A stretch of DNA of 64,000 nt from Candidatus Poribacteria bacterium (GCA_022394755.1 JAGFCA010000024.1:12368-76367), one strand, 5' to 3'. Shown: positions 7,075 through 51,039, counted from the stretch's first letter. Notes: generated from the sequence alone by a model not told the origin. Translations and numbers: made by a program.

Positions 7075-7689
7075 TTATCCTTTTCCTTGGGAATAGTAAG
7101 GATTATCTCCAGCAGCGTGATCTGTTGTATCAATCACTCTTTTGATTTCTGGAAAAACTTCTTGAATCATACCCTCAATACCATGTTTGAGTGTAACATT
7201 CGCCATACCACATCCCTGACAACCACCACCCATATGGATATAGATGGCATCATCTTCAACATTTAATAATTCTATCTGACCACCATGAGCGGCGACAGCT
7301 GGATTAATTCGTTCATCAATTAATTCTTGAATCTTCTGTGCTTTTGGATTATCCCAAGTAGGTGTGTTTGGATTATCAATCTTAAAACCACTTGAATTTA
7401 GATCTTCGACGTAATCAATAACTGCACCTTTGAGATCAGAGGCACTATTGGAATCCACGAGAACTTTAAACGATCCATTATCAATAACGATGTCCCCATC
7501 TTCAGCCTCAGTAGCTAAACCAAGACTGTATTGAAAAGAAGTTGCATTACGTCCTTCAATAGAAATTCGCAGCCCTTCCACTTCAACGTCTTCTGAAGCG
7601 ATTACGGATTGAATCTTTTCCTTAGCGGTAGGTGTAATATCCAATAAAGATTCTTCACTTCCCGCAATTTTCTTAAATAGATTCTTCAT
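7075..7689 (-). CDS. nfuA: Fe-S cluster biogenesis protein NfuA-like (IscA-like N-domain + Nfu C-domain)
   Basis: C-terminal Nfu motif HMGGGCQGCGMANVTLKHGIEGMIQEVFPEI with CxxC. N-terminal HesB/IscA-like fold lacking the Cys triad, as in NfuA. Confidence 0.65.
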   Translation of the reverse strand: MKNLFKKIAGSEESLLDITPTAKEKIQSVIASEDVEVEGLRISIEGRNATSFQYSLGLATEAEDGDIVIDNGSFKVLVDSNSASDLKGAVIDYVEDLNSSGFKIDNPNTPTWDNPKAQKIQELIDERINPAVAAHGGQIELLNVEDDAIYIHMGGGCQGCGMANVTLKHGIEGMIQEVFPEIKRVIDTTDHAAGDNPYYSQGKG

Positions 7690-7709
7690 TTATACCTCTT
7701 TTACCCATT

Positions 7710-8681
7710 TTATGCAGCGGTTTTACCAACTTTATAGTCATTGCGGAATTCACCCATCTCATTATATAGGGTGTTGAGTTGTGAAATCGCATAGATTTCT
7801 AACTGCCGTATACGTTCTCTGGTAACGTCAAGTGCGTCACCAATTTCGCGCAGAGTTTTTCTTTCTCCATCATCAAGTCCAAACCGCATTTTCAATACCT
7901 GTTGTTCCCGTTCTGGAAGTTTACTAAGGAATTGTTCGACCAAATCATTTTTAATCAGTTGTGAAATTGGACCATCTTCATTAGCAGTTGCTGGATCTTC
8001 AATCAAATCACCCAATGTTGCAGATGAACGTGATGACCGTTCTTCTCCAAGAGGTAAATCCATTGAAATGGTATCAGCATTAAAAGTAAGAATTTCTTCA
8101 ACCTGTTGAACAGTAAGGTCAAGAGCATCAGCAATTTCCTCACGTGACGGCTCTCTTTGTAATTCTTGGCAAAGTGATGCATAAGTGGCATCAAATTTGT
8201 TCATTTTAGCAACAATATATGCGGGTAACCGTATAGAACGGGCAAAATTATCAAGTGTTCTCATGATGGATTGCTTAATCCACCAAATAGCATATGTACT
8301 AAATTTGAACCCTTTCCTATAATCGAATTTACCAGCTGCTTTAATTAATCCTATATTCCCTTCTTGAATAAGGTCTTCAAGTGGTACTTTGTTTCCTTGA
8401 TACCTAACTGCAATAGAAATCACGAGACGTAAATTAGCCTGAACTAACTCATCCCTTGCCGTAGTATCACCAGCTTCAATTCTTTTTGCTAATTCTACTT
8501 CTTCTTCTCGAGTCAATAAACGATGTCCTGCAACGCTGCGTAACCAACTCGTTAATGCACTTCTATCACTACCCTTATAATCGTTTGAATATTCTGTTTC
8601 CTCCGAAGGATATGTAGTTTCATCAATAAACGGGTCTACACCTTCAATTTCTTCTGTATCACCGAAAAACTCGGTTTCCAT
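7710..8681 (-). CDS. RNA polymerase sigma-70 family factor (group 1/2, RpoD/RpoS-like), compact 323 aa
   Basis: Regions 2-4 recognisable (FSTYAIWWIKQSIMRTLDNFARSIRLPAY; TLREIGDALDVTRERIRQLE). Start set at ATG 8681 (METEFFG), preceded by GGAGAGGAG SD. ORF track begins 30 nt upstream at 8711. Confidence 0.85.
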   Translation of the reverse strand: METEFFGDTEEIEGVDPFIDETTYPSEETEYSNDYKGSDRSALTSWLRSVAGHRLLTREEEVELAKRIEAGDTTARDELVQANLRLVISIAVRYQGNKVPLEDLIQEGNIGLIKAAGKFDYRKGFKFSTYAIWWIKQSIMRTLDNFARSIRLPAYIVAKMNKFDATYASLCQELQREPSREEIADALDLTVQQVEEILTFNADTISMDLPLGEERSSRSSATLGDLIEDPATANEDGPISQLIKNDLVEQFLSKLPEREQQVLKMRFGLDDGERKTLREIGDALDVTRERIRQLEIYAISQLNTLYNEMGEFRNDYKVGKTAA

Positions 8682-9145
8682 TCGTCTCCTCTCCTTATAT
8701 TTGATAATCATAAAATCTGCCGAAGATATATACTACATTATACTATAACGTTTTGTCAAGCAAATTGTTTAAAAAACTTGCAAAATAGTCTAATTTATTA
8801 AAATTGTTGTTAAAACCTTAGTTTTTCTAATAGCATGACAAGAATACGAACATATTCAGTTTAGGTATGTCTATATACATCAAACATCTGAAATATGAGT
8901 AATATTGTAATACCAGAAATTCCTATTATTATACGTATTGAATAGAATTTCGATACAATTGATGTTGTCAATCGGCTAAAAATAAAAACCTTGGTATATT
9001 CCTATATATTAATTGTATAATTTTAATTGACATAGAATTCTGGAAAACTCGAAAAACAAAATAATCAAAGTATATCTTCTAAACGTAATAACACAATTTG
9101 CGTCATACCTTTCGTTACCAACAATAAGGAAGTAATTATAAGAAT

Positions 9146-11005
9146 ATGTATAATACCCCACTGAAAAAATCACTTGTTGATGTCTTACGAGAAGCAGATT
9201 TAATCTCAGATGAACAATATCAAGAGATACACGGAAGAATCCTTGAAGGTTGGGTTAATAAACCCATAGATAATCCAGAGAATATTGAAGAATCGGGTTC
9301 ACCAGAGTATAGAGAAATTCTTGATGAGATTGAAAAAGCAGGTGAATCTGAAGAAGTTATCATATCAGAATACGTCCCCCCAAAAACACTTGAACTTGCT
9401 AAGAAGGGTCGTGAATATGGTACAGCTGTAATTCAATTAGAAGAAATAAATCCAGAACAAGAAGCACTTGATAAAGTACCGCCAAGTTTTGCCTATCGAA
9501 ACACAATTGTCCCAGTCAATTTAGTAGAAAACGTACTTACAGTCGCAGTCGCGGATGTCCAAGATATTACACTAATGGATGAGATACAGTTTGTTACAGA
9601 ATGCGATATAAAATTGCTGCTTGCAGACGAAGAAGAGATCTCAGAGGCAATAGTAAGATTATATGGACAGACTGCAGCCTCTCTGCTAAGTGCAGGAATA
9701 AAAGGACCTGTTGGTGCAGCAGCCACCGTTGGACGTGAGAGGATTGAAGATTTTGGTATTGATGAAAATGACCTTAGCCAAGATCCTACAGTAATACAAG
9801 CTGTCGATCAAATGATAATTGATGCTGTGCGTGCTGGTGCAAGTGATATTCATATAGAACCGTATCCAGAAGAACTAAAAATACGATTTCGTGTTGATGG
9901 TGTGTTAGAAGATCAACCCCAACCACCTGCTTATCTACAATCTGCAATTACTTCGCGTATAAAAATTATGGCGGGAATGGATGTTGCAGAACGACGCCGA
10001 CCCCAAGATGGTAAGATTAACAGAGAAATTAGTAGTGTAAATAATCGACAGATTGATCTACGAGTATCAACGGTTCCAACAGTTGCAACCCAACATAGTG
10101 AGAGTGTTGTTTTACGTATTCTTGATAGACAATCAATTGAATTCGGATTAAATGAACTTGGTTTAACAGATACCAATTATGAACTTTTCGAAAGAATGAT
10201 ACACAAACCTCACGGGATTATCCTTGCTACAGGTCCTACAGGTAGTGGGAAAACTACTACTCTATATGCATGCCTCAAGGAAATCAATACTCCCAATGTA
10301 AAGATCATTACGCTTGAAGATCCTGTAGAATATGAATTAGTAGGTATTAATCAGATTCAGGTTAACTCCGATATCGAATTCACATTTGCCGATGGCTTAC
10401 GACATATACTGAGACAAGATCCTGATAAAGTCCTTGTAGGTGAAATACGTGACAATGAAACAGCTGAAATGGCAATACATACTGCATTAACCGGTCACCT
10501 TGTATTCAGTACCCTTCACACAAATGATGCTCCAAGTGCTATTACACGTCTGATTAACATGGAAGTTGAACCATACTTGGTAGCATCCACAGTTGAGGGT
10601 ATTATTGCTCAACGTTTAGCTCGGAAGGTATGTAATGTATGTTGTGAGATGGAACCACCCACAGAAGAAGAAATTACGGGTTTATTTACAAATAATGGTG
10701 TAAATATTGACAGTAATCTTATGATACCTCGTGCTAAACTTGGTGGATGCAAGGAGTGTCGAGGAAGAGGCTATAGAGGTAGAATAGGCATTTTTGAAGT
10801 TATAATAATGTCCGAAGAACTCCAGTCTATGGCACTTCAACAGGTTTCTTCAAGCGAACTTAGAAAGCTTGCTGTTGGATTAGGGATGAAGAGCCTTCGA
10901 GAAGACGGATGGCAAAAGGTCACAGCAGGTTTAACAACTGTTGATGAGGTTCTTAGACTCACACAGGAAGATGCCTACGATTTTGATGAAGGTCACTCTG
11001 GGTAA
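9146..11005 (+). CDS. gspE: Type II secretion / type IV pilus assembly ATPase GspE/PilB
   Basis: N-terminal T2SSE_N-like domain, Walker A GPTGSGKTTTLYA, Asp/His boxes, C-terminal tetracysteine zinc motif CNVCC...CKECRGRG. Confidence 0.9.
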   Translation: MYNTPLKKSLVDVLREADLISDEQYQEIHGRILEGWVNKPIDNPENIEESGSPEYREILDEIEKAGESEEVIISEYVPPKTLELAKKGREYGTAVIQLEEINPEQEALDKVPPSFAYRNTIVPVNLVENVLTVAVADVQDITLMDEIQFVTECDIKLLLADEEEISEAIVRLYGQTAASLLSAGIKGPVGAAATVGRERIEDFGIDENDLSQDPTVIQAVDQMIIDAVRAGASDIHIEPYPEELKIRFRVDGVLEDQPQPPAYLQSAITSRIKIMAGMDVAERRRPQDGKINREISSVNNRQIDLRVSTVPTVATQHSESVVLRILDRQSIEFGLNELGLTDTNYELFERMIHKPHGIILATGPTGSGKTTTLYACLKEINTPNVKIITLEDPVEYELVGINQIQVNSDIEFTFADGLRHILRQDPDKVLVGEIRDNETAEMAIHTALTGHLVFSTLHTNDAPSAITRLINMEVEPYLVASTVEGIIAQRLARKVCNVCCEMEPPTEEEITGLFTNNGVNIDSNLMIPRAKLGGCKECRGRGYRGRIGIFEVIIMSEELQSMALQQVSSSELRKLAVGLGMKSLREDGWQKVTAGLTTVDEVLRLTQEDAYDFDEGHSG

Positions 11006-11147
11006 TTAATATTGCGGTTATTGAATATTTCATAATTTCTTTTCTTTTTTACATATATCCGAATATGTAAAAACCTCATTGAAAATCCAATTAATCCTAT
11101 TATGAATTGTATTTCCTGCGTAATAAAACTGATGTATAGAGGTAACC

Positions 11148-12374
11148 ATGCCGAGATTTCAATATGAAGCCATAACCTATACAGGAGCAACAGTCAATAA
11201 TACTTTAGATGCTGATACAAAGGCAGACCTAATTGCTCAACTACGACAAATGGGGTATTGGCCTACAAAGATTGTTGAAGAAGGTGAACTTCTCGAAACG
11301 AAAGCAAAACGCATACTAAATATTGGTACACGTAAAGTAAAATCTGCTGATGTTGAGTTTTTTACTTACCAGTTAGCAGCATTAATTAATGCTCATGTTG
11401 CACTACCTCGTGCTATAGAAGTTACTTTAGAACAAATCTCGAATCCTGAATTACATAGAATTATTTCTCAAGTAAAATATGATGTTGAACATGGTGCAAC
11501 ATTTAACGCAGCTTTACAGCAACATCCGAAAATATTCTCAGATCTCTATGTGAATATGGTTAAGGCAGGAGAAACAGGTGGTGTGTTAGGAGAAGTATTA
11601 GAAAGACTTGCCGAATTTGCTGAAAAACAGCGACAATTAAAAAACCAAGTCATTTCAGCACTGTTTTATCCTGTGATTCTATTTGGTTTGATGGTTACTG
11701 CCATAGTTGTATTAATGATTTTGGTTATACCAAAATTTACCGCTATGTTTGATGAATTTGGGGGAGAATTACCGATACCAACAAAAATCCTGATTTCTAT
11801 CTCAAGTGGTTTTGCAACTTATTGGTGGGTAGGATTATTGTGTACCAGTATTATTGTTACATTCCTAAGGCAATATTTAAAAACAGAAAATGGGAAAATC
11901 TTACTTGATCGGATAAAATTAAGAATCCCTTTGATTGGACCAGTTTTTAGTACATTTGCTATCGTACGATTTACACGTACTATGGCGACTCTATTAGAAA
12001 ATGGTGTACGCATGCTTCAAGCTTTACGAGTAGTAAAAGATACAATTGGAAATAAAATATACAGTAATATCATCGCTGAAGCTGAAATTGAGGTAGAACA
12101 AGGTTCTACACTCTCCAGAGAACTTCAGAAGAGCAAAGATTTTCCTTCACTTGTTACTCACATGATCGCAGTTGGAGAAGAATCTGGTGAACCTGTTACA
12201 ATGTTAACAAAACTATCTCAATACTATGATATGGAGATAAGGAAGAATCTTGAGAGATTAACAAGTTCAATCAGTCCATTAGTGATTTTAATTATGGGTT
12301 TACTCATTGGTTTTATCGCAGTAGCAATGATTTTACCTATTTTCGAAGCACAACAAGCATTGGGTGGCGGATAG
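11148..12374 (+). CDS. gspF: Inner-membrane platform protein GspF/PilC
   Basis: 408 aa, duplicated GspF domain architecture with three TM segments. Directly downstream of gspE. Confidence 0.9.
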   Translation: MPRFQYEAITYTGATVNNTLDADTKADLIAQLRQMGYWPTKIVEEGELLETKAKRILNIGTRKVKSADVEFFTYQLAALINAHVALPRAIEVTLEQISNPELHRIISQVKYDVEHGATFNAALQQHPKIFSDLYVNMVKAGETGGVLGEVLERLAEFAEKQRQLKNQVISALFYPVILFGLMVTAIVVLMILVIPKFTAMFDEFGGELPIPTKILISISSGFATYWWVGLLCTSIIVTFLRQYLKTENGKILLDRIKLRIPLIGPVFSTFAIVRFTRTMATLLENGVRMLQALRVVKDTIGNKIYSNIIAEAEIEVEQGSTLSRELQKSKDFPSLVTHMIAVGEESGEPVTMLTKLSQYYDMEIRKNLERLTSSISPLVILIMGLLIGFIAVAMILPIFEAQQALGGG

Positions 12375-12491
12375 ATTCATTCCATTTTATATAAACTATC
12401 ACTATTGTATTTTGTCTAATTATACACATGTTTACAGTTATAGAAATAAATCAAACTATTCAGATCCATATATTATAAGGAGTTAAACATA

Positions 12492-12947
12492 ATGATTAAG
12501 CAACTTAAAAGAGATGAATCAGGTTTAACACTAATTGAATTGACTATTGTTATTGTGATTTTAGGTATTTTAGCAGCATTTATCGCGCCAAGAATTGTTA
12601 ATGCTCCCCAAAAGGCGAAAGTATCTAAAGCAAAAATTGAAATTAGTAATTTAAAAACAGCATTAGGACTATATATGAGTGAAGTAGGAGAATACCCCTC
12701 ATCAGAACAAGGCTTGGATGCATTATGGAGAGCACCAAATCCATCTCCATTGGGTTGGTCGGGTCCCTATCTTGATCAACAACTTACCAACGATCCATGG
12801 GGTAATCCTTATGTATATAGGAATCCCGGTAGCAATTATGGATACGACTATGACCTAATGTCATACGGGAGAGATGGTAAACTTGGTGGCACTGATCTTG
12901 ATAAAGATATAACTAATTGGATTGAAGAAACCCCACAAAATCAGTAA
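12492..12947 (+). CDS. gspG: Major pseudopilin GspG
   Basis: Prepilin leader MIKQLKRDESG|LTLIELTIVIVILGILAA with Glu at +5. Conserved GspG core (ALGLYMSEVGEYPSSEQGLDALW...GNPYVYRNPG...GRDGKLGG). Confidence 0.9.
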   Translation: MIKQLKRDESGLTLIELTIVIVILGILAAFIAPRIVNAPQKAKVSKAKIEISNLKTALGLYMSEVGEYPSSEQGLDALWRAPNPSPLGWSGPYLDQQLTNDPWGNPYVYRNPGSNYGYDYDLMSYGRDGKLGGTDLDKDITNWIEETPQNQ

Positions 12948-12972
12948 TTCCAGTGATATCATAGGATACCAG

Positions 12973-13635
12973 ATGGATTTAAGAAATCGATGGCGAATAA
13001 CAAACAGAAATGAAGATGGTTTCAGTTTGATGGAAATCATGTTGGTGTTCGCTATCATCGCTGTTGTATCATCAATTACAATGCCTGCTATGAAAGGGGT
13101 TTCATCTTCAAGACGTTTAAAAACCTCCGCCCGTGCAATCGTTGATACACTATCGTTTGCACGAGATATGGCTATTACAGAACGAAATACACATCTTGTT
13201 GTATTTGATTTAACGGGTAATAGATTCTGGTTGGCATCAAGTGAAACATTAGATATTCAGAATCCATTGTCATCTGCAGGAAGGGCAACTACGCCTTCAC
13301 CCGCACCTACAACTATACCAGGACAAGCTACTCCGATACCTGTTTCCCGTGCTGGTGGTGTTATGGGTATCCCTCGTACTTTACAAAAAAGTGTGTCTTT
13401 TGCATCAATGGTTACAAATCACAATGGAACTTACCAAAGAATTACCACAGGTGCAGAGTATACATATTTTACTCCAACATCAAAGTCATCTGAAACAACA
13501 CTATATCTTCAAAATACAAATGGTAATGCTATCTCTATTTCCGTTGAAGGCTCAACAGGAAGAGTAAGTATGGAACAGCTGACACAAGACCAAATAGAGA
13601 CTCTTGGTATTGGTGAAAACATTGAAAATGATTAA
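12973..13635 (+). CDS. Minor pseudopilin, GspH-like
   Basis: ORF track from 12922; ATG 12973 gives MDLRNRWRITNRNEDG|FSLMEIMLVFAIIAV, a class III prepilin signal with Glu at +5. Contains a low-complexity Pro/Thr-rich stretch. Confidence 0.65.
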   Translation: MDLRNRWRITNRNEDGFSLMEIMLVFAIIAVVSSITMPAMKGVSSSRRLKTSARAIVDTLSFARDMAITERNTHLVVFDLTGNRFWLASSETLDIQNPLSSAGRATTPSPAPTTIPGQATPIPVSRAGGVMGIPRTLQKSVSFASMVTNHNGTYQRITTGAEYTYFTPTSKSSETTLYLQNTNGNAISISVEGSTGRVSMEQLTQDQIETLGIGENIEND

Positions 13636-14023
13636 CTATATCCGTTGCGAAAAAGAAAAGGGATTTACCTTCGCAGAAATACTTGTAACGATTGCTATTA
13701 TGGCAGCTGTTTTACCTGCCCTTTTAAAAGTGTTTAGTGATATTTCTCGAAGTCAAGCTCTGATGGACAACAGATTAACCGCTCTGAATTTACTTAAACA
13801 CCAAATGGCAGAAATTGAAGCTAATGGATTTCCCGATGTTGGTCAGGAAAGCGGTGAATTTGGCGAGGATTCTCAATACCAATGGGAATCTGTTATCACT
13901 GAAGTGGATCCAGAAGAATTAGAAGGATTATTACAAGTTGAGGTAACAATTACTTGGTCACATTTAGGTCAGGTAAAATCACTTGGTGCTACAACATATA
14001 TGGCAAATAGGGAATTACAGTAA
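13628..14023 (+). CDS. Minor pseudopilin, GspI-like
   Basis: ATG 13628 gives MINYIRCEKEKG|FTFAEILVTIAIMAAV (prepilin signal, Glu at +5). ~130 aa as for GspI. 8-nt overlap with the upstream gene. Confidence 0.6.
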   Translation: MINYIRCEKEKGFTFAEILVTIAIMAAVLPALLKVFSDISRSQALMDNRLTALNLLKHQMAEIEANGFPDVGQESGEFGEDSQYQWESVITEVDPEELEGLLQVEVTITWSHLGQVKSLGATTYMANRELQ

Positions 14024-14129
14024 CCCTATGAAGAATTGATTTCTTATTACAAATCCTTAGATATAATTGTCTTAGTTCTTTTTCTAAATTTATGATTTTA
14101 GCTTAGATTACTTAAGGATAGTTATTATA

Positions 14130-15035
14130 ATGAGGTATCCATATATTATGAGAAAACACAAAAACAGATCTGAAAGTGGTCTTACACTTGTAGAAATGCT
14201 AACTGCAGTTAGTGTTATCGTAATAATGAGTGGTTCTTCATATGCTGTTTTCAATACTGCTATAAAGGTATATCAACGAACTCAATCAAAAATAATTCAA
14301 GCCAAACGGTCAAGATACGCTTTTGAACAATTATTTATGGATATAAATCAAATGCAAGTAGATCCATCCGATGAGATGTTAACACTATTTTCAGAAGATA
14401 TACCTACTCCAGATGGTGAAAGAGATATCATCAGTTTTATTACTTTTGTAAAATCTGATCCAGACCCATTTTCTATCCAATTACCAGTTAATCCTGATAA
14501 TATCACACCTCCTCTAAGCGATATAAGGCGTGTAGTATACTATGTTGGTCCTAAAGTACCATCACAAGAAATACAGAATGGTAATATACCGTCCCCAATT
14601 TCTAATCTTGGACAGATAGAAGAACAGACAACACCGATATCTGAAGAATTGGTGTTATATCGTGTTGTCTCAACCGCATTAGATCCTGAATTAGTTGTCA
14701 GCGCGATAATGGATACAGGTATTATTCCAACCGTTGATGAAAGTGGACAGCCGGTTTTTGGATTTGATGTAACTCCTGTTATTGACGGAATTATCAACTT
14801 TGATTTGAAGTATATTGATGAAGAATCAATGTATGAATCCTGGGACGAAACTGATACAACCCCCATTGCAATACAAATACTCATTACAATAATAGATGAA
14901 GATAGACAACAAAGTACATCCTCGACAGCAGATACGTATTCTGATTCTCAAATGGTTACACAACAAGGTGCATTAACTCAGTCTTCTATGGTATATATAC
15001 CTGCAAGTGCAAACGTTAATGCTGATGATCAGTAA
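14130..15035 (+). CDS. Minor pseudopilin, GspJ-like
   Basis: MRYPYIMRKHKNRSESG|LTLVEMLTAVSVIVIM prepilin signal with Glu at +5. Sits at the GspJ position in G-H-I-J-K order. Confidence 0.55.
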   Translation: MRYPYIMRKHKNRSESGLTLVEMLTAVSVIVIMSGSSYAVFNTAIKVYQRTQSKIIQAKRSRYAFEQLFMDINQMQVDPSDEMLTLFSEDIPTPDGERDIISFITFVKSDPDPFSIQLPVNPDNITPPLSDIRRVVYYVGPKVPSQEIQNGNIPSPISNLGQIEEQTTPISEELVLYRVVSTALDPELVVSAIMDTGIIPTVDESGQPVFGFDVTPVIDGIINFDLKYIDEESMYESWDETDTTPIAIQILITIIDEDRQQSTSSTADTYSDSQMVTQQGALTQSSMVYIPASANVNADDQ

Positions 15036-15155
15036 ATTGCCAAATATCAGACAGACATCTAATTCTCTAACCACATCTTCAAATAAATTGAAAGAGAATA
15101 TTGCAAGATTGGATAGATAATCTGAGTATGTTAACAAGTAAGCAAAAAAGAAAAT

Positions 15156-16652
15156 ATGAGATATTCATTTTATTCATTAAATAAGAAGTGTAATTCAGAT
15201 GGATTATCTCTTGTATCTACACTTTGGATAATTTCTATACTCTCAGTTCTAGCTATGCAGCTGCTGTACTCGTTTGAGTTAGAAAGTAAGGCGCGTAATA
15301 ACTTTGCAGATAGAGTTAAATATCATTATGCTGCAAAATCCGGTTTTGAACTTGGTTTAATAGCCCTGCGTACTGATGAAACTAATTTTGATTCACTTGG
15401 AGAGGTGTGGGCTGAACCTATTCAACAGCAGGTTGAAGATCGAATACAAATGGGAAAGCAACTTTCTTTTCAGGTTTCTATTACTGATGAAGCTTCAAGA
15501 ATAGACCTTAATAGTGCCCAGGAAGACACAATTCGCAATTTACTTTCGTTTCTTGGTGTTCAACCGGAAATGAATGAAACTGGTGATTTAGCGACAAGAA
15601 TTGTTGAAGGTCGTCCATTCAGATCTGTTAGAGATGTTGCACGAATTGAGGGGATGACAGAACAAATTCTATATGGAATTCAACCGCAAATTGAATCAAC
15701 AAGTGGTTCACCACCAATTGTTGAACCACCTGTACCCGATTTAACACAAGCCCCACCACCTACAGATCCTACACATGCATCAGATACACAGCCAACACCA
15801 CAATCATCTGGTGGGTTAATAGCATACACAACAATTTATTCTACTGATCGAAATACTGATTCTGAAGGACAGCAAAGGGTAAATATTAATACTGCGAATG
15901 CACAACAGATACAAGGGATTCAAGGTAATAACAATCAATCCGTTTTCACGCAGGCTGAGGCAAATGCCATTATCCAAGCACGTGATTTTGATGGCATTTC
16001 TGGTATATTAGATGTACAAGCGGTATCTGATAATGTGTTTAATAATATACGTGACAGATTGACTACTCAAGGGAACAACAATGATGATAATCGTGTAAAC
16101 ATAAATTCTGCTGATGCTGATGAACTTGAAGAATTACAAGGTATTGATAGCGGTATTGCCCAACGAATTGTAGCCTACAGAAATGCGCAAGGAGATTTTG
16201 CTAATATAGACGCAATTAAAAATGTGCCCGTAACATTTGTACAACAATTCATAGAAATTGTTGATAAAATTACAACAACCGATGATAGCACTATATCTGG
16301 GTTAATTAATATTAATACTGCTCCGATAGAGGTATTAGCATTATTACCAGGAATGGATAATCAGAAAGCACAAGCTATAATTACACGTCGTAACGAAAAT
16401 CCAGAAGAACAGAGTGATCCTGAAAATCCTGTCCAAGGAAATCCATTTTCTAATCTTGGTGATCTGCTGGATATAGAAGAAATAGATAATCAAACATTCA
16501 GAGAAGTCGTAAATTGGATTACATATAGATCTCATGGTTATCGAATTCAATCATCAGGAATCGACCGTTCAGGAAAAACTACTGCAGTCTGTGAAGGAAT
16601 AGTTATACGAACTCAAAACCAATTGCAGATACCGTATTGGCGAATTGATTGA
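15156..16652 (+). CDS. Minor pseudopilin GspK-like with helix-hairpin-helix (ComEA-like) motifs
   Basis: NSDG|LSLVSTLWIISILSVLA prepilin-like N-terminus lacking Glu+5, a GspK hallmark. Three 'VNINTA/ININTAP...LxxLPGI' HhH motifs (VNINTANAQQIQGIQG; VNINSADADELEELQGIDSGIAQRIV; ININTAPIEVLALLPGMD). Confidence 0.55.
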   Translation: MRYSFYSLNKKCNSDGLSLVSTLWIISILSVLAMQLLYSFELESKARNNFADRVKYHYAAKSGFELGLIALRTDETNFDSLGEVWAEPIQQQVEDRIQMGKQLSFQVSITDEASRIDLNSAQEDTIRNLLSFLGVQPEMNETGDLATRIVEGRPFRSVRDVARIEGMTEQILYGIQPQIESTSGSPPIVEPPVPDLTQAPPPTDPTHASDTQPTPQSSGGLIAYTTIYSTDRNTDSEGQQRVNINTANAQQIQGIQGNNNQSVFTQAEANAIIQARDFDGISGILDVQAVSDNVFNNIRDRLTTQGNNNDDNRVNINSADADELEELQGIDSGIAQRIVAYRNAQGDFANIDAIKNVPVTFVQQFIEIVDKITTTDDSTISGLININTAPIEVLALLPGMDNQKAQAIITRRNENPEEQSDPENPVQGNPFSNLGDLLDIEEIDNQTFREVVNWITYRSHGYRIQSSGIDRSGKTTAVCEGIVIRTQNQLQIPYWRID

Positions 16653-16705
16653 TTTGAAATTATACAAAACTATAATAGAAAAATAAGCAATAGAGGCTTA
16701 ATTTT

Positions 16706-18556
16706 ATGGCAAAAAATCAGGTTGTAGCAATAGATGTTGGAACTTCATCTGCTAAACTAATTCACTTAGAGAAATCATCAGAAACGATAAATTTAGTTGA
16801 TGTGGCAACTATTGCTTATTCAGATCCAAATAATCCAGAACAAATCTCTGACGCAGTTAAGCAATTATGGGAAAAGTTAAGATTAAAGCAAACTATATTT
16901 AATAAACATAAACTTGAAGTCGCTCTTGCATTACCACGTAGGTTTGTTGTTACGAAACGTTTACCAAATATTCCTCCAGCAACAACAGATGACCAATTAC
17001 CTACTATGGTAGCAATGGCAGCTGAAACAGAACTCCCGTTTCAATCAGACGATGCTATATTTACATATCATGATGTGCACCGCTCCACTGAAGCAGTATC
17101 CTTAGAACTTGTTTCAAGTAGACGTGATACAGTTTCTCGTTATATTGATTCAATGAAAGAGATAGGTATTTCCCCATCTGCTGTAATTCCCTCGATGTTT
17201 GCTATAGCAACAGTGGCGAGAAACTCATTGAGCAATTCGGACGAACGCGTTGCAATTGTCGATATTGGAGGTGGACAAACTGATTTCTGCCTAATGAATG
17301 GAAATAAAATGGAGTTTTCACGTGGTTTCGCTGTAAGTGGTAATCAACTCACACGGCATCTGATGTCAGAATTACAGATAGAAGCTGAAGAGGCTGCCCA
17401 CGAAAAACAGCAAATCACTGCATTTCAAGCATCAGCACGGACTTGGACAAGACAATTTATTGGAGAGTTGGAAAGGTCCATTTCCGCTGCACAACGAGAA
17501 ATTAATGATGATGAATTTGATATATCTGAAATCTGGTTATGTGGTGGTGGTGCAAGAATTCCAGAATTAGCTGAAACTTGTGAAGAACAATTACAAATAC
17601 CTACAAAACTATGGAATCCGATTTATTCAGGGTCTGTAGATACATCCTTAGTTTCAGCATCAATACTCGAAACCCATGGAGATACATTAGCTGTTCCTTT
17701 AGGGGTTGGAATCCATATACTTGAATCTGAAGAACCAATCTCACTTTTACCACAAGAAGTTGGTGTGAAACGTGCTGAATTCTCTAAGAAACGCCAGCAA
17801 CTTATAGCTGCAAGCGTGGCAGGTTTAGCAATGGTTACCATAATCCTTGGTGGGATAACCTGGAGTAGTTCGCGAAAAGCCAAAGAAACACTATTGGATG
17901 GTCAAATTGCGGATTATCAAACATTACAGTCAGATGCGAATAAACATCTGGCACTTAATCTTATATTAGCTGATAAATTAACTCACCAAGCATCTCCATT
18001 AGATATTTTACATGCACTTAGTACACTCTTTAAAGACAGAACTAAGGTTGCATGGAAGACTTTCGAAGTCAATAATCTTGATGATTTAAAAAAGGCAAGA
18101 ATTACCTTCAGTTTACAATCGAATTCCCATGAATCACTTGATTCAATGTTGGGAGTACTAAGTCGATCAGACATGTTTACTAATATACAGGAAGGCGAGA
18201 GAACTTCTACTGGGGATGAACGAAGACCTACGATAGAAGTAAAAATCAATTGTAGATTAACTTCAAAGGCAATCCAGATGTTTGCACAAGAGCGGTATCC
18301 CAAACCTCCTCCAATGATAGAAGATACATCTGACGACATTGACATTGATATATCGTCTCCTGAGAATGTTATTGACAAGGCTGATGAATCAGAGAAAGAC
18401 AAACAACATGAAGATAAAGATGACGAGGAAGAAAAGGATAACACAGTTATTGATAATTCTTCACCTGAAAATGAACCTTTAGATGAATCAAAAGTTAATG
18501 ATAAAAAAGTACAAGAAGATAAAGAAAATGATGATGAAGAATACGATAACGATTAA
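16706..18556 (+). CDS. GspL-like assembly protein (PilM-like actin-fold domain fused to TM + PilN-like periplasmic domain) with acidic C-terminal tail
   Basis: N-terminus VVAIDVGTSSAKLIHLE is an actin-like ATPase fold as in PilM/GspL-cyto. Central TM (LIAASVAGLAMVTIILGGI). Tail DDIDIDISSPE...DEEEKD...DDEEYDND. Confidence 0.6.
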   Translation: MAKNQVVAIDVGTSSAKLIHLEKSSETINLVDVATIAYSDPNNPEQISDAVKQLWEKLRLKQTIFNKHKLEVALALPRRFVVTKRLPNIPPATTDDQLPTMVAMAAETELPFQSDDAIFTYHDVHRSTEAVSLELVSSRRDTVSRYIDSMKEIGISPSAVIPSMFAIATVARNSLSNSDERVAIVDIGGGQTDFCLMNGNKMEFSRGFAVSGNQLTRHLMSELQIEAEEAAHEKQQITAFQASARTWTRQFIGELERSISAAQREINDDEFDISEIWLCGGGARIPELAETCEEQLQIPTKLWNPIYSGSVDTSLVSASILETHGDTLAVPLGVGIHILESEEPISLLPQEVGVKRAEFSKKRQQLIAASVAGLAMVTIILGGITWSSSRKAKETLLDGQIADYQTLQSDANKHLALNLILADKLTHQASPLDILHALSTLFKDRTKVAWKTFEVNNLDDLKKARITFSLQSNSHESLDSMLGVLSRSDMFTNIQEGERTSTGDERRPTIEVKINCRLTSKAIQMFAQERYPKPPPMIEDTSDDIDIDISSPENVIDKADESEKDKQHEDKDDEEEKDNTVIDNSSPENEPLDESKVNDKKVQEDKENDDEEYDND

Positions 18557-18616
18557 CCATAATTCTATACATTCTATAACACTTCATATCTCCTAAAGAT
18601 TGATAAGGATAAAAAA

Positions 18617-19942
18617 GTGAATTTAGATCTGCAACTTACAACACAGACCAAATTACTTATTGGAATTCTCGGGTTAGTACTAATCATAGCATTGGTAACA
18701 CAATGGGGTCCAGGTTTATATAAGATGTTCTCAGACGAGGAAATGGCTGTAAAAAAACAAACTCTTCAAACATCTAAAGATTTAGTAGCTGCTTCAAGAA
18801 TGTTGATACCCATTGAAGTAGGACTATTTGAGAAAACTGGACTTGCCGAAGAAGGTCAGGATGCTTCGATTTTTAATGATAATTTCCCTGAGACTGTCAT
18901 TCGTTCAAAGATTACATCAATTGTTAAAGAAGCAGGAATACCAAGAAATTACCAATGGAACATGGAACCTATCCCAGGCAAGAAGACAGAAAAAATCTCA
19001 CCGCATGCTCGACGTAACTTAATCAACTTTCTATATCTGGAAAAACTAAAAACAGAAAGAGATATCTTACAGTTTGAAATTGAGGATGAACAACAAACAC
19101 AAGAAGATGCTGAAGTACAAGCAGAAGAAGAGATGATGGATCTGTTGATGAATGCATGGTTAGATGAAACTGAAGATATCCCAGAGAAGGAGGAACATGA
19201 ATCCAACAATATGGATATAGAAGAGAATGAGGACGAAGCCTCTGAAGATATCAAGGAAGATGATTCCAACAATAGGGATATAGAAGAGAATGAGGACGAA
19301 GACAAAATCGAAAATGGTATAGAGAAACAACAAGATGGTGATGTCTATACGGACAAAGCTGATTCAGATATGAACCAAAATCAATCGAATGAAGAAGATT
19401 TTGTATCATTGCCAGAGGATATACCAATAACAATTCGAGTGGAACTGATTGATGTACTTCTTTCAATGATTGAACAACAACTTGTTGGAGCTGAAACGAC
19501 ACTATTTGAAAAGGAATTCTATAAATTACAAAAAGAATCGAAAGCAGGATTCTTTGGATTTGGTTCGAAAAAGCCTTCAACGGAAATTAGTTTTAACCCA
19601 AATAGTCAGATATTGAGTACTTTTCTTATTCTTATAAAAGACTATGAATCAGAATTAGATAAGAAGCATCTTTCTTCACTTCTTCTACAATATCTTGAAA
19701 ACATACAGACACAAATCGAAGAACTTACAAAAGGATTGAGATTAGCTCCTTCAACCTACACTCCAGAGAGTTATTCCATAAAAATAAAGTTTAAGGCTGA
19801 ATTGGATAAGCTTGTTAATCTCAATAGGATAATTGAAACTTCATCAAAATGGTTGATGGTAAGAGATCTTAAAATCTCTACTGACAATAAACAAGACAAA
19901 ATAACTGTTGAGTTGTTCTTGATTGCGAGGATTTATCAATGA
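18617..19942 (+). CDS. T2SS-associated bitopic membrane protein with acidic tandem repeats (GspM/GspC position), hypothetical
   Basis: GTG start with AAGGA SD. N-terminal TM (LLIGILGLVLIIALV). In-frame 63-nt-period repeats encoding SNNMDIEENEDEA / SNNRDIEENEDED. No match I can assert to a named Gsp family. Confidence 0.4.
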   Translation: MNLDLQLTTQTKLLIGILGLVLIIALVTQWGPGLYKMFSDEEMAVKKQTLQTSKDLVAASRMLIPIEVGLFEKTGLAEEGQDASIFNDNFPETVIRSKITSIVKEAGIPRNYQWNMEPIPGKKTEKISPHARRNLINFLYLEKLKTERDILQFEIEDEQQTQEDAEVQAEEEMMDLLMNAWLDETEDIPEKEEHESNNMDIEENEDEASEDIKEDDSNNRDIEENEDEDKIENGIEKQQDGDVYTDKADSDMNQNQSNEEDFVSLPEDIPITIRVELIDVLLSMIEQQLVGAETTLFEKEFYKLQKESKAGFFGFGSKKPSTEISFNPNSQILSTFLILIKDYESELDKKHLSSLLLQYLENIQTQIEELTKGLRLAPSTYTPESYSIKIKFKAELDKLVNLNRIIETSSKWLMVRDLKISTDNKQDKITVELFLIARIYQ

Positions 19943-40440: not shown

Positions 40441-41871
40441 TCAAAGATCTAAGGTTGTCTTCAATTGTAAAAATGGGTTCTGTTTTCTTAGGGTGTCTAT
40501 AGATTTCAAGTCCTCAATTGGATTATCTAAAACCATTAAATGTGTGAGATTCTTAAGATTCCCTATAATTCTAATATCGGTAATTTGATTACCAGATAGG
40601 TTTACCATAATTAGGTCCTGCAATTTTACTATCGGTTCAATGTCCTTGATATGATTGTTCATAAGAGATATTGCATTTAGTTTGTTCATATCTGCAAGTG
40701 GAGAAATATCTATAATCTGATTATTTTCCAATATTAGCATTTCCAGTTTTGTTAATTCATTAAGCGGAGAAATATCATTGATTTCGTTTCCAGAAAGGTC
40801 GAGAAAATTTAATTTCTTCAGTTTACTAAGAGGTTGTATTCGGGTAAGTCCACAGTGAATAAGTGAAAGAAATTCCAACTGATGTAATTCTGAGATAGGG
40901 TTTAGGTCATTAATTTGATTATAAGCGAGTGTAAGAATATTTATCTGTGTCATGACTTTAATAGGTGTTAAGTCTGTTATCTGACACTTAATTAATGATA
41001 AGCTTGTAAGATCTGTGATTTCGGTAACTGGTGTTAAATCCTTAATGTCAATGTTTGTTAGTGATAGATCCGTGAGTTGTGTAAGGTTTGAAAGTATGTC
41101 AAAATCAATGTTTTCTAATTCTCCTCCGTTAATAGATAAATTCGTAAGTTGTATCATTCCACCAATAGGTGTGACATCTGCGATTTTACAATTATGTAGA
41201 TGTAACTGTTTCAACTGTGCCATACCAGAGAGCGGAGTGATATCTACAACTTGATTGCTATCAAGAGATAAGTTCGTAAGATTAGTTAATTCTGTCATCT
41301 GATTAATGTCACTTATATCATTTAAGGTAAGTCCTAATTGGTTAAGTTGAGACAATTCAGATAGGACATCAAACAATTCATTAGAATTTTTGATAGTATT
41401 GTTTTTCAGTTCTAAGTGATTGAGATTTTTTAATCCAGCAATCGGATTTATACTTCTTATATTGTTATTAGTTAGGTTTAATGTTTTCAGTTCGATTAAA
41501 TTGGCAAGTGGTTTGATATTAGATATTTTATTATCATTTAGTGTTAATGATCTAAGCTTTGTAAGCTTATTTAGCGGTTTGATGTTTTGAATGTCGTTAT
41601 GATTAAGGAATAAATTGTTTAGATTTACAGCTTTCTCCAAACCGTTTAACCTTGTAATTTCAGCATGGATCGCACCTAAGACTGTTAATTTACTTAGATC
41701 TTCTTCCAATATAGGAGCATCTGGGTCTAATGCAAGTTCTTTTCGTATTGCATTTGCAAGGTTATCATCAGGAATTAAATTCCGTTCAAAAACAGAACAA
41801 CTCAGAAGAACGGTCAGAATCAAGAAAAATACACAGATATGTTTCATTATTTCATCCTTTATAATTTCCAA
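40441..41871 (-). CDS. Exported leucine-rich repeat protein (internalin-like 22-aa LRRs)
   Basis: Signal peptide (MKHICVFFLILTVLLSCSVFE). About 17 consecutive 22-residue repeats LxxLxxLxLxxNxIxDIxPLxx. Confidence 0.8.
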   Translation of the reverse strand: MEIIKDEIMKHICVFFLILTVLLSCSVFERNLIPDDNLANAIRKELALDPDAPILEEDLSKLTVLGAIHAEITRLNGLEKAVNLNNLFLNHNDIQNIKPLNKLTKLRSLTLNDNKISNIKPLANLIELKTLNLTNNNIRSINPIAGLKNLNHLELKNNTIKNSNELFDVLSELSQLNQLGLTLNDISDINQMTELTNLTNLSLDSNQVVDITPLSGMAQLKQLHLHNCKIADVTPIGGMIQLTNLSINGGELENIDFDILSNLTQLTDLSLTNIDIKDLTPVTEITDLTSLSLIKCQITDLTPIKVMTQINILTLAYNQINDLNPISELHQLEFLSLIHCGLTRIQPLSKLKKLNFLDLSGNEINDISPLNELTKLEMLILENNQIIDISPLADMNKLNAISLMNNHIKDIEPIVKLQDLIMVNLSGNQITDIRIIGNLKNLTHLMVLDNPIEDLKSIDTLRKQNPFLQLKTTLDL

Positions 41872-41872
41872 T

Positions 41873-44455
41873 CTATTGATCTAAATATAAATTGGGTTGT
41901 TCTTTTTTTAGATTTTGGATAGGTGACATGTCCACGATTGGGTTATTCTTAATATGTAGGGTCTGCAGCTGATTTAGATTTTCAAAAACACTCACATCCT
42001 TAATTTGGTTATCAGATAAGGATAACCATTTCAGTTTCTTGAATTTGACTATAGGAGATATATCTTCAATTTTATTCTTATTAAGTACTAAACGACTCAA
42101 ATGGTCTAATTTTGAGAGTGGACTAATATCTTCTACTTGATTATTGTATATAGATAAGGAGGTTAACCGTTTCATATTAGATAAAACAGTCACTAATTGT
42201 GTAATATCAGAAATTTGATTTCCCTCTAATGTTAATGATGAGAGACGGGACAAACTTTCAAGAGCCGAAAAATCCCTAATTTGACAATCAATAAGAACTA
42301 AATTATTCAGTTGACTTAATTTACTGATAGAACTAATATCTAAAATCTTAACCGTACTGAGATAAAACGTATGAAGATGTTTCAAATGAGTCAATGGAGT
42401 GAGATCATTAATCTGGATATTGTGCAAGAATAAGGAATTAAGGTGGAATAAATCTGATAGTGGTGATAAATCACTAATCGGATTGTCTTTAATCGTCAAA
42501 TAGGTAAGATTCTGCAATTCTACAAGTGGTGATATATCACGTATCTGATTCTCATCAATTGATAAAGTAGTCAATTTTGACATCTTTATTAGTGGTGTGA
42601 GGTCTTTGATATTATTTCCATCAATTCTTAATGACTCTAAATCTGTCAAGTCAGATAATGGGGTGAGATCCATGATTTCACCACTACAAATATACAGATC
42701 TTGTAAGTTTTCTAAATCTTTCAGCGGAGATATATCTGTAACTTTATTTTCTTTATTATCTTCTGTTCTATAGAATCTACGGAGACGTAAAGTCCATAGA
42801 GAGTTCAATCCAGCAAGAGGGGTAATATCACGGATCTTATTTCCACCCAATCCTAAACTTAGGATGTTTGGTAGTTTTGAAAGTGGTTCAAGGTTAATTA
42901 TTCGATTATCATCTAAAGATAAATGCCGTAACTTTGTCAAATTCTTTAATGGTCTGAGGTCCTCAATATCATTAAACATCAACATAATGCTCGTTAGTTC
43001 TGATAGTCCTTCAAGTGGAGAAATATCTTGAATTTCATTCAATGCAAGATCTAATTCTTCTAATGCAGTAGCAAACTCTAAACCCGTCAAGTCAACTATT
43101 TTGGTGCTATTTGAAGATAAAGTTGTTAGTTCTTTTAGTTTTTCTATTGTAATTAGATCAACTGAACTTAGACCGAGTTGACGTGCAATTGCTGCTTCTA
43201 AGTTTGGATCAGGAATGATCTCAGATTCTGAGGTTACTACATCCTCCATATTCTCTGTTAAGTTAACATCTGTTTGCTGGGTATTGAAAGGAAGCGTCCT
43301 CTTCTGCCTCAGCTCATCAAGCAGACCTGTATCACTTAGTAGCTCTTTATCTACATTTAAAATATCTAATTCCTTTAAACCCTTGAGTACCTGTATATCA
43401 CGGATTTCGTTGTTTTCTAAATGTAAATAAGTTAATTTTTCCAAGTTTGCAAGGGGTGAAACATCTATAATGTCATTGTGTTGAAGGTACAGAGTCTTTA
43501 ATTGCTTCAAACCATTCAAAGATGGCAAGACTTTAATTGAATTATGATTCAGATATAGTGTTCTTAATTTAGATAAATTGTCAATGGATGGGACATCAGT
43601 AATTCTATTGCTGCTAAGGTTTAGAGTGCTTAGATTGGTCAAACTCACTATAGGATTAATATCATTGATTTCATTTCGAGCAAGTTCTAATTCTCTTAAA
43701 TTTACCAACCCCGATATAGGAGTAATATCTTGAATTTTATTGTTCGACAATATCAAAGTCTGAAGATTTAGCAAATTTTCAAGAGAGGATATAGAGGTTA
43801 TACGATTTAAATCCAATGTGAGACTATTTAGTTGTTTGAGTTTTTGAAGTGATGGTATTTCTCTTATTCGATTGTCACGAAGGCTAAGTATTATCAATTT
43901 ATGTAGATTTATAATCGGTGTAAAATCTTGTATCTCATTATATTCAAGGAAAATTGTTCTTAATTGTTTTAGATTTCTTAATGCTTCTATACCTTGGATA
44001 TAATTCCTGGACAGAGATAATGAACGTAGGTGATTTAATTTTGAAATAGGCGTCAAATCTGAAATATGGTTATTATCAAGATTCAAAGACCGAAGTCTTT
44101 TCATTTTCTTTAATGTTGATATATCGGTAATATTATTTCTATAAAGTGATAATTGGGTAAGTTTTGTTAATCCCTGAATTGGTGTTATATCTGAAATCTC
44201 ATTCTGATTAAGTGTTAAGACTTTTAATTCTGTAGCATATTCTAAACCAGATAAATCGTTTATCCCTTTATCAGATGCATCAAGTTCTGTCAATTCCTTC
44301 ATATTTTTATTTAAAATTGGTGTATCTGAATCTATTTTGAGAGCATCTCTAATTGCAGTCTCTAAATTCTTATCTGGTATATCTATTTCTATTGGTTCTT
44401 GTGAAACACAACCAATAAATGCCACAAAGAAAATTAGAAAAATTGCATATCTCAT
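41873..44455 (-). CDS. Large leucine-rich repeat lipoprotein (internalin-like LRRs), 860 aa
   Basis: Lipobox FIGC. More than 30 22-aa LRRs in two blocks separated by a linker. 1-nt gap to the downstream LRR gene. Confidence 0.8.
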   Translation of the reverse strand: MRYAIFLIFFVAFIGCVSQEPIEIDIPDKNLETAIRDALKIDSDTPILNKNMKELTELDASDKGINDLSGLEYATELKVLTLNQNEISDITPIQGLTKLTQLSLYRNNITDISTLKKMKRLRSLNLDNNHISDLTPISKLNHLRSLSLSRNYIQGIEALRNLKQLRTIFLEYNEIQDFTPIINLHKLIILSLRDNRIREIPSLQKLKQLNSLTLDLNRITSISSLENLLNLQTLILSNNKIQDITPISGLVNLRELELARNEINDINPIVSLTNLSTLNLSSNRITDVPSIDNLSKLRTLYLNHNSIKVLPSLNGLKQLKTLYLQHNDIIDVSPLANLEKLTYLHLENNEIRDIQVLKGLKELDILNVDKELLSDTGLLDELRQKRTLPFNTQQTDVNLTENMEDVVTSESEIIPDPNLEAAIARQLGLSSVDLITIEKLKELTTLSSNSTKIVDLTGLEFATALEELDLALNEIQDISPLEGLSELTSIMLMFNDIEDLRPLKNLTKLRHLSLDDNRIINLEPLSKLPNILSLGLGGNKIRDITPLAGLNSLWTLRLRRFYRTEDNKENKVTDISPLKDLENLQDLYICSGEIMDLTPLSDLTDLESLRIDGNNIKDLTPLIKMSKLTTLSIDENQIRDISPLVELQNLTYLTIKDNPISDLSPLSDLFHLNSLFLHNIQINDLTPLTHLKHLHTFYLSTVKILDISSISKLSQLNNLVLIDCQIRDFSALESLSRLSSLTLEGNQISDITQLVTVLSNMKRLTSLSIYNNQVEDISPLSKLDHLSRLVLNKNKIEDISPIVKFKKLKWLSLSDNQIKDVSVFENLNQLQTLHIKNNPIVDMSPIQNLKKEQPNLYLDQ

Positions 44456-44631: not shown

Positions 44632-45558
44632 ATGAAGGTATCAACAAATTATACAATAACTGCTATAGATGGTATACAAGTAGGTCATGCGACTAATATA
44701 TCTGCAAAAACGGGTTGTACTGTGATACTTTGTCCTGAAGGTACTACTGCAGGGGTGGATGTCCGTGGGGCTGCACCCGGCACACGTGAGACTGATGCCA
44801 TACGTCCTGGACGATTAATTCAGGAAGTACACGGAATCCTGTTGACAGGAGGAAGTGCGTTTGGTTTGGATGCTACAAGTGGTGTTGTTCAATATCTTGA
44901 ACAGAGAGAAATTGGTTTTAAAGCAGGAGACGTACGTGTTCCAATAGTTCCGACAGCAGTTATCTTTGATTTACATGTTGGAGATGGAAAGATCCGTCCA
45001 AATAAAGACATGGGATATGAAGCATGTATTAATGCAGATAATACTCAAGTCTTGATGGGGAGTATTGGTGCAGGAACTGGTGCAACTGTTGGAAAAGCAC
45101 CAGGGATAGAACCATCACCAGGAGGAATTGGTTCTGGATGTATTCGTCTTGAAAATGGATTAATTGTTGCTGCTCTTACTGTAGTAAATTCTCTTGGAAA
45201 TGTGGTAGATCCTAAGTCGGGTGAGATTATCTCAGGCGGAAAAGATAAAGGGGTGTATGTGGATATAACCGAACGACTATTAGATGCAGATATTGTTCCA
45301 GGGACAAATACGACCATCGGTGTCGTTGCTACTAATGCTAAACTGACAGTAGCTGAAGCAACACGTGTCGCAGAGATGGCACACGATGGAATGGCACGTG
45401 CAATCTATCCATCACATACCATGTTTGATGGGGATACACTGTTTACCCTTGCTACAGGTAAACATGAACAAAGTAGTGTGAATACGATTGGAATACTCGG
45501 AGCAGAGGCTGTTGCAAAATCAATTGTAAACGCTGTAATGGCTTCAACACCGAGCTAA
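44632..45558 (+). CDS. Peptidase family S58 (DmpA/P1 aminopeptidase-like) protein
   Basis: GIQVGHATN...GCTVIL...LTGGSAFGLDATSGVVQYLEQREIGF...TIGVVATNAKL. Ntn-hydrolase DmpA/ArgJ-like pattern. Confidence 0.65.
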   Translation: MKVSTNYTITAIDGIQVGHATNISAKTGCTVILCPEGTTAGVDVRGAAPGTRETDAIRPGRLIQEVHGILLTGGSAFGLDATSGVVQYLEQREIGFKAGDVRVPIVPTAVIFDLHVGDGKIRPNKDMGYEACINADNTQVLMGSIGAGTGATVGKAPGIEPSPGGIGSGCIRLENGLIVAALTVVNSLGNVVDPKSGEIISGGKDKGVYVDITERLLDADIVPGTNTTIGVVATNAKLTVAEATRVAEMAHDGMARAIYPSHTMFDGDTLFTLATGKHEQSSVNTIGILGAEAVAKSIVNAVMASTPS

Positions 45559-51022: not shown

Positions 51023-51039
51023 AATTGACGGGCACATTA

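Follow-up and report, generated by a model that had tools for sequence, protein, structure and literature searches.

The 64,000-nucleotide stretch of Candidatus Poribacteria DNA analysed here (GCA_022394755.1, JAGFCA010000024.1:12368-76367; hereafter the window) carries eleven open reading frames (ORFs) on the + strand between positions 9146 and 26061, which probably form one operon for a divergent type II secretion system (T2SS). The major pseudopilin GspG and both copies of the secretin GspD score above their NCBIfam equivalog cutoffs, while the platform protein GspF and the tip pseudopilin GspK are of the T2SS type by relative score. On the basis of these sequence comparisons we assign the cluster to the T2SS, as a divergent member that appears to have kept a platform of the type IVa pilus (T4aP) kind; the assembly ATPase fits both systems.

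The order E-F-G-H-I-J-K-L-M-D was found to be colinear in all 79 loci of a conservation scan that used one genome per GTDB species, being complete in 73 of them and cut by contig ends in the other six. All of these loci are labelled Poribacteria or uncultured bacterium, and identity to the PilM-PilN fusion protein of the window ranges from 90% down to 38%. A colinear order over such a range of identities points to an old and selected feature of the phylum and not to a chance assembly. Every homologue of the fusion and M proteins comes from Candidatus Poribacteria, and the NCBI protein JT359_06305 is identical to the window product. Our literature searches returned no paper describing a poribacterial T2SS. 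T2SS are reported to be rare outside Proteobacteria, where the few examples are either incomplete or difficult to assign to a class (PMC4793230). The present cluster would add a full single-operon system that is conserved across a whole candidate phylum and that joins a filament and pore of the T2SS type to a platform of the T4aP type.

Composition and order of the cluster

A total of 56 ORFs of at least 110 amino acids (aa) were listed in the window, 46 of which were kept as non-overlapping candidate genes for the Pfam scans. Families were called from Pfam and NCBIfam (TIGR/NF) hidden Markov model (HMM) scans, the prediction of transmembrane (TM) segments and phmmer searches against the PDB (Table 1). 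The eleven-gene cluster of a preliminary description of this DNA proved to be real, with every ORF recovered where it had been placed and the families supplied by HMM scans. The likely true starts of the gspH-like, gspI-like and second gspD genes are internal ATGs, which corrects the earlier ORF openings. Intergenic gaps within the cluster do not exceed 143 bp and therefore leave no room for a hidden gene. The operon is bounded downstream by a strong terminator-like hairpin, the top-ranked site of its kind in the region, after which a convergent GT2 glycosyltransferase gene follows. Upstream and divergent from it, a sigma-70 gene of full length is accompanied by a NifU-like gene (7075-8711, - strand); since this synteny is limited to the clade of the window (loci L001-L026), the sigma factor possibly serves as a dedicated regulator. 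The window gave no matches when scanned for Rfam families and tRNAs.

Table 1. Genes of the cluster and its flanking features, with the main evidence for each assignment.
Feature	Position	Strand	Length (aa)	Evidence and remarks
gspE/pilB-type assembly ATPase	9146..11005	+	619	T2SSE and MshEN domains
gspF inner-membrane platform protein	11148..12374	+	408	Two T2SSF domains; 3 predicted TM segments
gspG major pseudopilin	12492..12947	+	151	Signal G|LTLIEL; no cysteine; C-terminal SYGRDGKLGGTDLDKDITNW loop
gspH-like minor pseudopilin	12973..13635	+		Signal G|FSLMEI; ORF opens 12922 (TTG), likely start ATG 12973
gspI-like minor pseudopilin	13628..14023	+		Signal G|FTFAEI; ORF opens 13604, likely start ATG 13628
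gspJ-like minor pseudopilin	14130..15035	+	301	Signal G|LTLVEM
gspK-like tip pseudopilin	15156..16652	+	498	Signal G|LSLVS without Glu+5; T2SSK and HHH_3
PilM-PilN fusion in the GspL role	16706..18556	+	616	PilM_2 106.6 bits over the N-terminal 334 residues
GspM/PilO-type bitopic platform protein	18617..19942	+	441	Fold comparison; previously unassigned
gspD secretin, copy 1	19939..22941	+	1000	TIGR02517 365.8 bits (cutoff 351.35)
gspD secretin, copy 2	23083..26061	+		TIGR02517 375 bits; ORF opens 23056 (TTG), likely start ATG 23083
sigma-70 gene, divergent, upstream boundary	7710-8711	-		Full-length, regions 1.2-4
Terminator-like hairpin, putative operon end	26199-26232	+		14 bp stem, 7 GC pairs; consensus match only

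The gene order had been called non-canonical, which was not borne out: apart from the missing C, it follows the Xps-type order E-F-G-H-I-J-K-L-M-(C)-D already described, in which the prepilin peptidase is encoded elsewhere (PMC11981180). Two further points of the preliminary description change. The gene that it had left unassigned is now GspM/PilO-like, so that there is no gap in the system, and the pair of secretin genes, which it had listed in the order, is a clade-specific duplication outside the core design. In the Xps cluster of Xanthomonas the genes run XpsE-F-G-H-I-J-K-L-M-C-D; GspO is encoded outside of it, and there is neither a pilotin nor GspA/B (PMC11981180). Both systems have eleven genes in one cluster with the ATPase first and the secretin last, a colinear G-H-I-J-K-L-M core, a GspG-type pseudopilin and a GspD-type secretin, and both are without a prepilin peptidase in the cluster, a pilotin or GspA/B. 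They differ in that the poribacterial window has no C gene between M and D, although two sister loci (L077 and L085) have a C-like gene there. In place of GspL, the poribacterial system has a complete PilM joined to PilN. Its M protein has 441 aa and contains an acidic insert, its secretin is present in two copies and has six ring domains compared to three in Xps, K contains four helical modules compared to about two, and the host is not a proteobacterium.

The major pseudopilin GspG scores 142.6 bits with TIGR01710 (cutoff 88.85) and 124 bits with Pfam T2SSG. The H, I and J proteins each carry an N_methyl motif. H matches N_methyl at 24.6 bits and, with its N-terminal half only, TIGR01708 (GspH) at 43 bits, which is under the cutoff; its assignment also relies on its position in the conserved gene order. 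I matches TIGR01707 (GspI) at 35.4 bits over 97 of the 101 profile positions (cutoff 44.35), and J matches TIGR01711 (GspJ) at 29.5 bits with the N-terminus only, its orthologue in locus L085 having a weak precomputed T2SSJ match. The five class III signals (G|LTLIE, G|FSLME, G|FTFAE, G|LTLVE and G|LSLVS) read exactly as they had been quoted, with K alone lacking Glu+5, and a six-frame scan of the whole window returned those five only. The signals and the GspH/I/J/K matches, which are weak but specific, agree with the G-H-I-J-K order that had been proposed.

K scores 88.9 bits with NF037980 (GspK; under the cutoff), 63.6 bits with Pfam T2SSK and 114.7 bits with HHH_3 (E 2e-33, three stretches). 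Four helix-hairpin-helix (HhH) modules make up its expanded helical insert, with the motif xNxNTA at residues 116, 242, 314 and 384. The positions of the modules are conserved among 78 orthologues, the motif being matched at two to four modules in each. The ComEA HhH model TIGR00426 also matches K above its cutoff (79.5 bits against 53.1), and in phmmer searches of the PDB, ComEA chains were matched whereas GspK chains were not. Read directly, however, the hairpins have GID, GMD and VPV in place of the G-h-G signature. Because of this, and because the same modules match T2SSK, the modules look like an expanded GspK insert and not like evidence of DNA binding; the idea of a DNA-binding tip, which we considered, is weakened on the same grounds.

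The ATPase has an N-terminal MshEN/N1E domain, a Walker A motif (GPTGSGKT) and a CxxC...CxxC zinc motif, and scores 424 bits with Pfam T2SSE and 69 bits with MshEN. Against the PDB it matches PilB at 434 bits over 522 aa and EpsE at 373 bits over 407 aa, and its best plasmid-encoded relatives are annotated as GspE (41-44% identity). GspF matches Pfam T2SSF in two stretches (201 bits) and scores 373.6 bits with TIGR02120 (GspF; under the cutoff of 424) compared to 316 and 310 bits with the PilC models. The membership of E and F in their superfamilies is certain.

The protein in the L position is a natural PilM-PilN fusion with the architecture of GspL and the sequence character of T4aP. It consists of an actin-like PilM domain (residues 1-340), an SLLP motif (346-349), a TM segment (approximately 366-384) and a periplasmic part. 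In an AlphaFold2 (AF2) model (predicted local distance difference test, pLDDT, 74) the periplasmic part forms a long helix, an alpha-beta-beta x2 domain up to approximately residue 530 and an acidic disordered tail. PilM structures ranked first in a Foldseek search with this model (TM-score 0.73-0.83), and among 47 orthologues Pfam PilN was matched in 33 and T2SSL in 22. The residues S346-L347-L348-P349, found just after the PilM domain, are invariant and align with the PilN 'INLLP' motif in 5eou_A, an engineered PilM:PilN1-12 chain. A phmmer search of the periplasmic half against the PDB gave no match. The PilM fold, the PilN matches and the SLLP motif agree with the earlier proposal that a PilM-PilN-like fusion fills the role of GspL.

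The M protein contains an N-terminal TM segment, a coiled coil, an acidic disordered insert (approximately 185-259) and a C-terminal ferredoxin-like domain. Sequence searches against Pfam, NCBIfam and the PDB gave no match, and the assignment came from fold comparison alone, by which the protein can be assigned as GspM/PilO-like, its predicted fold being equally close to PilO and GspM. Both L and M show many invariant alignment columns across their orthologues.

The first secretin is composed of a signal peptide, an N0-like domain, six Secretin_N ring domains and the secretin pore domain, and its start overlaps the stop of the M gene by 4 nt. Six Pfam Secretin_N stretches were found in each copy, with no further Pfam domain such as AMIN. 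Copies 1 and 2 score 191.6 and 195.5 bits respectively with the PilQ model, about half of their GspD scores, and the best PDB matches are GspD/XcpQ (XcpQ 119 bits, PilQ 66 bits). The two copies are 76% identical (BLASTP 761/995), with a ratio of nonsynonymous to synonymous substitution rates (dN/dS) of 0.05 at saturated dS, a value from which both appear to be under purifying selection. Of the 26 loci that belong to the clade of the window, 21 have two tandem copies; the other clade has a single copy. Part of a third copy was observed at the end of one locus of the first clade (L026). In a rough neighbour-joining tree of loci L001-L026 the copies group by sub-lineage, which suggests recurrent duplication, concerted evolution or gene conversion.

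The GspC connector and the prepilin peptidase

The preliminary description had reported neither a GspC homologue nor a prepilin peptidase, and both absences hold for the window. No T2SSC, PilP or Peptidase_A24 family was found by Pfam among the 46 window ORFs, and gspC and gspO, which could have been located just outside the cluster in the same operon, are neither in nor next to it.

In L077, which is the poribacterial locus that diverges most, M and D are separated by an additional gene of 280 aa. Its product has a single NCBIfam match, NF041515 (GspC_delta, E 2e-7), and among 63 homologues of this C-like protein, Pfam T2SSC was found in two and PilP in one. A second genome (L085) contains the complete order E-F-G-H-I-J-K-L-M-C-D. 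Searches for homologues of the C-like protein of this sister lineage gave nothing in the window or in the 10 kb on either side of the cluster at 78 other loci. An N6/N4 DNA methylase gene and an unknown 222-aa ORF were also observed in L077 (8265-9931), located between gspK and the PilM-PilN fusion gene, and together they are probably a mobile restriction-modification insertion in this one lineage.

Since the sister poribacterial lineages keep the C-like gene exactly between M and D, the absence of GspC is most simply read, on an unrooted tree, as a lineage-specific loss. This reading is weakened by a distant, unlinked C-like homologue in at least one poribacterial assembly. In studied systems the N0 domain of the secretin is the docking site of GspC, and the secretin architecture, including N0, is the same and colinear in C-containing and C-less lineages. 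The acidic tails of L and M and the basic loops of the secretin were considered as features that might compensate for the loss of C. These are likewise the same with and without C, and together with the unchanged secretin architecture they therefore give no support for compensation.

An unlinked 196-aa protein that shares the motif NNLFRPLGYR with the GspC-like family was observed in a Candidatus Poribacteria assembly (L080-L082; 10001-10591 of L080), flanked by a multihaem-cytochrome-like gene and a Peptidase_C39/DUF1573 gene. It is possible, if on the unlikely side, that GspC is not missing at all and that the connector is encoded elsewhere or is too divergent to be recognized, in which case the genes of an otherwise normal T2SS would simply be split between places in the genome. 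Such an arrangement would account for the unlinked motif-sharing homologue in at least one assembly and for the retention of a colinear N0 docking domain in the C-less lineages, and the search of this genome covered 64 kb. On the other side stand the lack of any homologue in the window or near the cluster in the 78 other loci and the outcome of a search of 5.8 billion proteins, which should have collected every protein sharing the ten-residue motif but recovered only four such unlinked clusters.

As for the prepilin peptidase, the A24 motif G.GD.K was found neither in the window nor in 85 related loci (10 kb on either side). In MacSyFinder models the prepilin peptidase is a 'loner' and exchangeable component (PMC6668835), and an unlinked peptidase is therefore counted as normal for such systems; here, too, it may be unlinked. 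Two candidate locations were examined and rejected. The only unclassified polytopic ORF of the window (51025-51810, + strand, 261 aa) has no A24 match or motif; it contains six predicted membrane segments and has no Pfam or NCBIfam match. The gaps between gspE and gspF in several clade B loci hold a secreted DUF1080-like gene instead of gspO. One or two genes of approximately 270 aa with signal peptides occur in these gaps (L033 3524-4333; L036 2665-3477 and 3561-4364), and their weak similarity to 3-keto-disaccharide hydrolase/DUF1080 is such that they could be operon-embedded cargo or accessory proteins.

Class of the system and competing readings

Some observations weigh against a T2SS. GspC is absent from the cluster though it is essential in studied T2SS (PMC11981180); the prepilin peptidase was found neither in the window nor in the 85 loci; H, I, J and K are all under their family cutoffs; the ATPase is not clearly a GspE, as it scores 565 bits with the NCBIfam PilB model and 551 bits with GspE, both under the cutoff; and the platform, with its PilM, PilN motif and PilO-like fold, is nearer to T4aP than to GspL/GspM. 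The PilM-PilN-PilO alignment subcomplex by which T4aP is recognized was found. A T4a major pilin was not found, as the PilA model gives 35.6 bits on the major subunit against a cutoff of 400, and the scores for ComG-type components (ComGA 258, ComGB 144 and ComGC 17.9 bits) are all under their cutoffs and under the Gsp scores. The cluster had been described as a divergent T2SS/T4aP hybrid. A complete, non-proteobacterial T2SS-type system with T4aP-like features remains of that description, whereas the lack of GspC does not stand as a general trait.

GspL corresponds to PilM and PilN, GspM to PilO, GspC to PilP and GspD to PilQ, so that the second part of the cluster follows the order of pilMNOPQ as well. 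Compared to the PilM-PilN-PilO-PilP-PilQ systems of Pseudomonas, Myxococcus and Thermus, the poribacterial cluster shares the PilM fold (TM-score up to 0.83), the PilN INLLP motif (kept as SLLP) and the MN-O-(P)-Q order, with a PilP/GspC-like gene in the sister lineage. It differs from them in having PilM and PilN in one chain, no PilP, a GspD-type secretin without an AMIN match, GspG and not PilA as the major subunit, no PilT nearby and platform genes that share one operon with E, F and the pseudopilins. The models of the Akkermansia Amuc_1098-1102 pilus-like cluster and of other PilM-like fusions of the Planctomycetes-Verrucomicrobia-Chlamydiae (PVC) type gave scores far under their cutoffs (105 against 650 and 72 against 750), and the poribacterial cluster differs from these in its full GspG-K set and GspD-type secretin. 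The reduced T2SS-like systems of Chlamydia and Leptospira are similar in being non-proteobacterial, in lacking some Gsp components and in being hard to class by standard models (PMC4793230, PMC6668835). However, the chlamydial systems are apparently without minor pseudopilins and GspL/M, all of which are present in the poribacterial cluster, which lacks only C (and O in cis).

By homology with the studied T2SS and T4aP machines, we infer that the hexameric GspE/PilB-type ATPase of this divergent T2SS would dock on two partners, GspF, which is polytopic, and the fusion protein, at its cytoplasmic PilM domain. The periplasmic PilN-like domain of the fusion would pair with the PilO/GspM-like protein to build the inner-membrane platform. 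An unlinked prepilin peptidase would cleave the five prepilins, and a K-I-J(-H) tip complex would prime a short GspG pseudopilus. As it grows, the pseudopilus would push folded periplasmic proteins out through the GspD secretin, the seven periplasmic domains of which (N0 and six ring domains) may form an unusually long conduit. The GspC/PilP gene between M and D would have been lost in this lineage and the secretin gene duplicated. The likely cargo would be the secreted enzymes for glycan degradation that are typical of these sponge symbionts, together with their eukaryote-like repeat proteins.

A more doubtful reading takes the cluster as an intermediate between T4aP and T2SS, made up of gspE-K and a half colinear with pilMN-O-(P)-Q. 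In most of the phylum it would then work without the connector, and the seven-domain secretin paralogues, as alternative or mixed channels, would engage PilMN/PilO directly.

It is quite unlikely that the cluster encodes a pilus and not a secretion system, that is, a T4a-like or competence-like surface filament for adhesion or DNA uptake in which the ComEA-like modules of K bind DNA. The PilM-PilN-PilO-like platform, the pilMNOPQ-colinear 3' half, the marginally higher PilB score of the ATPase together with its best PDB matches to PilB chains, and the ComEA matches of K (TIGR00426 above cutoff, and PDB chains) all fit such a filament. Against this, the major subunit is no T4a pilin but in every respect a typical GspG, with 151 aa, a score above the cutoff, the C-terminal loop of GspG and no disulfide, the secretins score about twice as high as GspD than as PilQ and are without an AMIN match, and the hairpins of K lack G-h-G in modules that also match T2SSK. 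PilT is absent from the window and, at the 79 loci, from the surrounding 10 kb, and the window and each of these loci have only one T2SSE-family gene. The single locus is typical of T2SS and not of type IV pili (T4P), as one locus encodes the whole system in 96.5% of T2SS, whereas 99% of T4P are spread over several loci (PMC4793230). Finally, a decaying or silent remnant without current function, to which the absence of the normally essential GspC and several pseudopilins under their cutoffs might point, is highly improbable given eleven intact reading frames, an order kept in 79 species-level genomes at 38-90% identity of the fusion protein, many invariant columns in L and M, and the dN/dS of 0.05 between the secretin paralogues.

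T2SS diversified from T4aP (PMC6668835). The mixture of T2SS and T4aP features in the cluster described here, in an order that matches both Xps and pilMNOPQ, therefore makes it a useful data point on the origin of secretion systems from pili (PMC6668835). The occurrence of colinear clusters with and without a GspC-like gene in one phylum also provides a natural test of the dispensability and replacement of the connector. With regard to sponge symbiosis, the system is a candidate export route for the glycan-degrading enzymes and eukaryote-like proteins of Poribacteria, the secretion pathway of which was left open in earlier genome work (PMC3909097).

Other genes of the window

Several genes outside the cluster were also observed. 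Two sulfatase genes with SGSH_C domains are located at 46961-48313 and 59195-60601 (both - strand), and a gene of the type I phosphodiesterase/nucleotide pyrophosphatase family (45555-46952, - strand) has a sulfatase match of 23.6 bits, under the cutoff of 25. The products of these three genes have no obvious signal peptides. A PorV/PorQ-family outer-membrane protein is encoded at 60670-61812 (- strand; NF033709 224 bits, cutoff 90), and the adjoining 711-aa ORF (61850-63985, - strand) has a weak PorZ C-terminal match. An earlier poribacterial genome paper described Por-type C-terminal sorting domains and no Por/T9SS structural genes (PMC3909097). At 40441-41871 and 41873-44455 (both - strand) lie two tandem genes for internalin-like proteins that contain leucine-rich repeats and, at the N-terminus, hydrophobic segments; these are repeat proteins of the eukaryote-like kind and possible secreted cargo.

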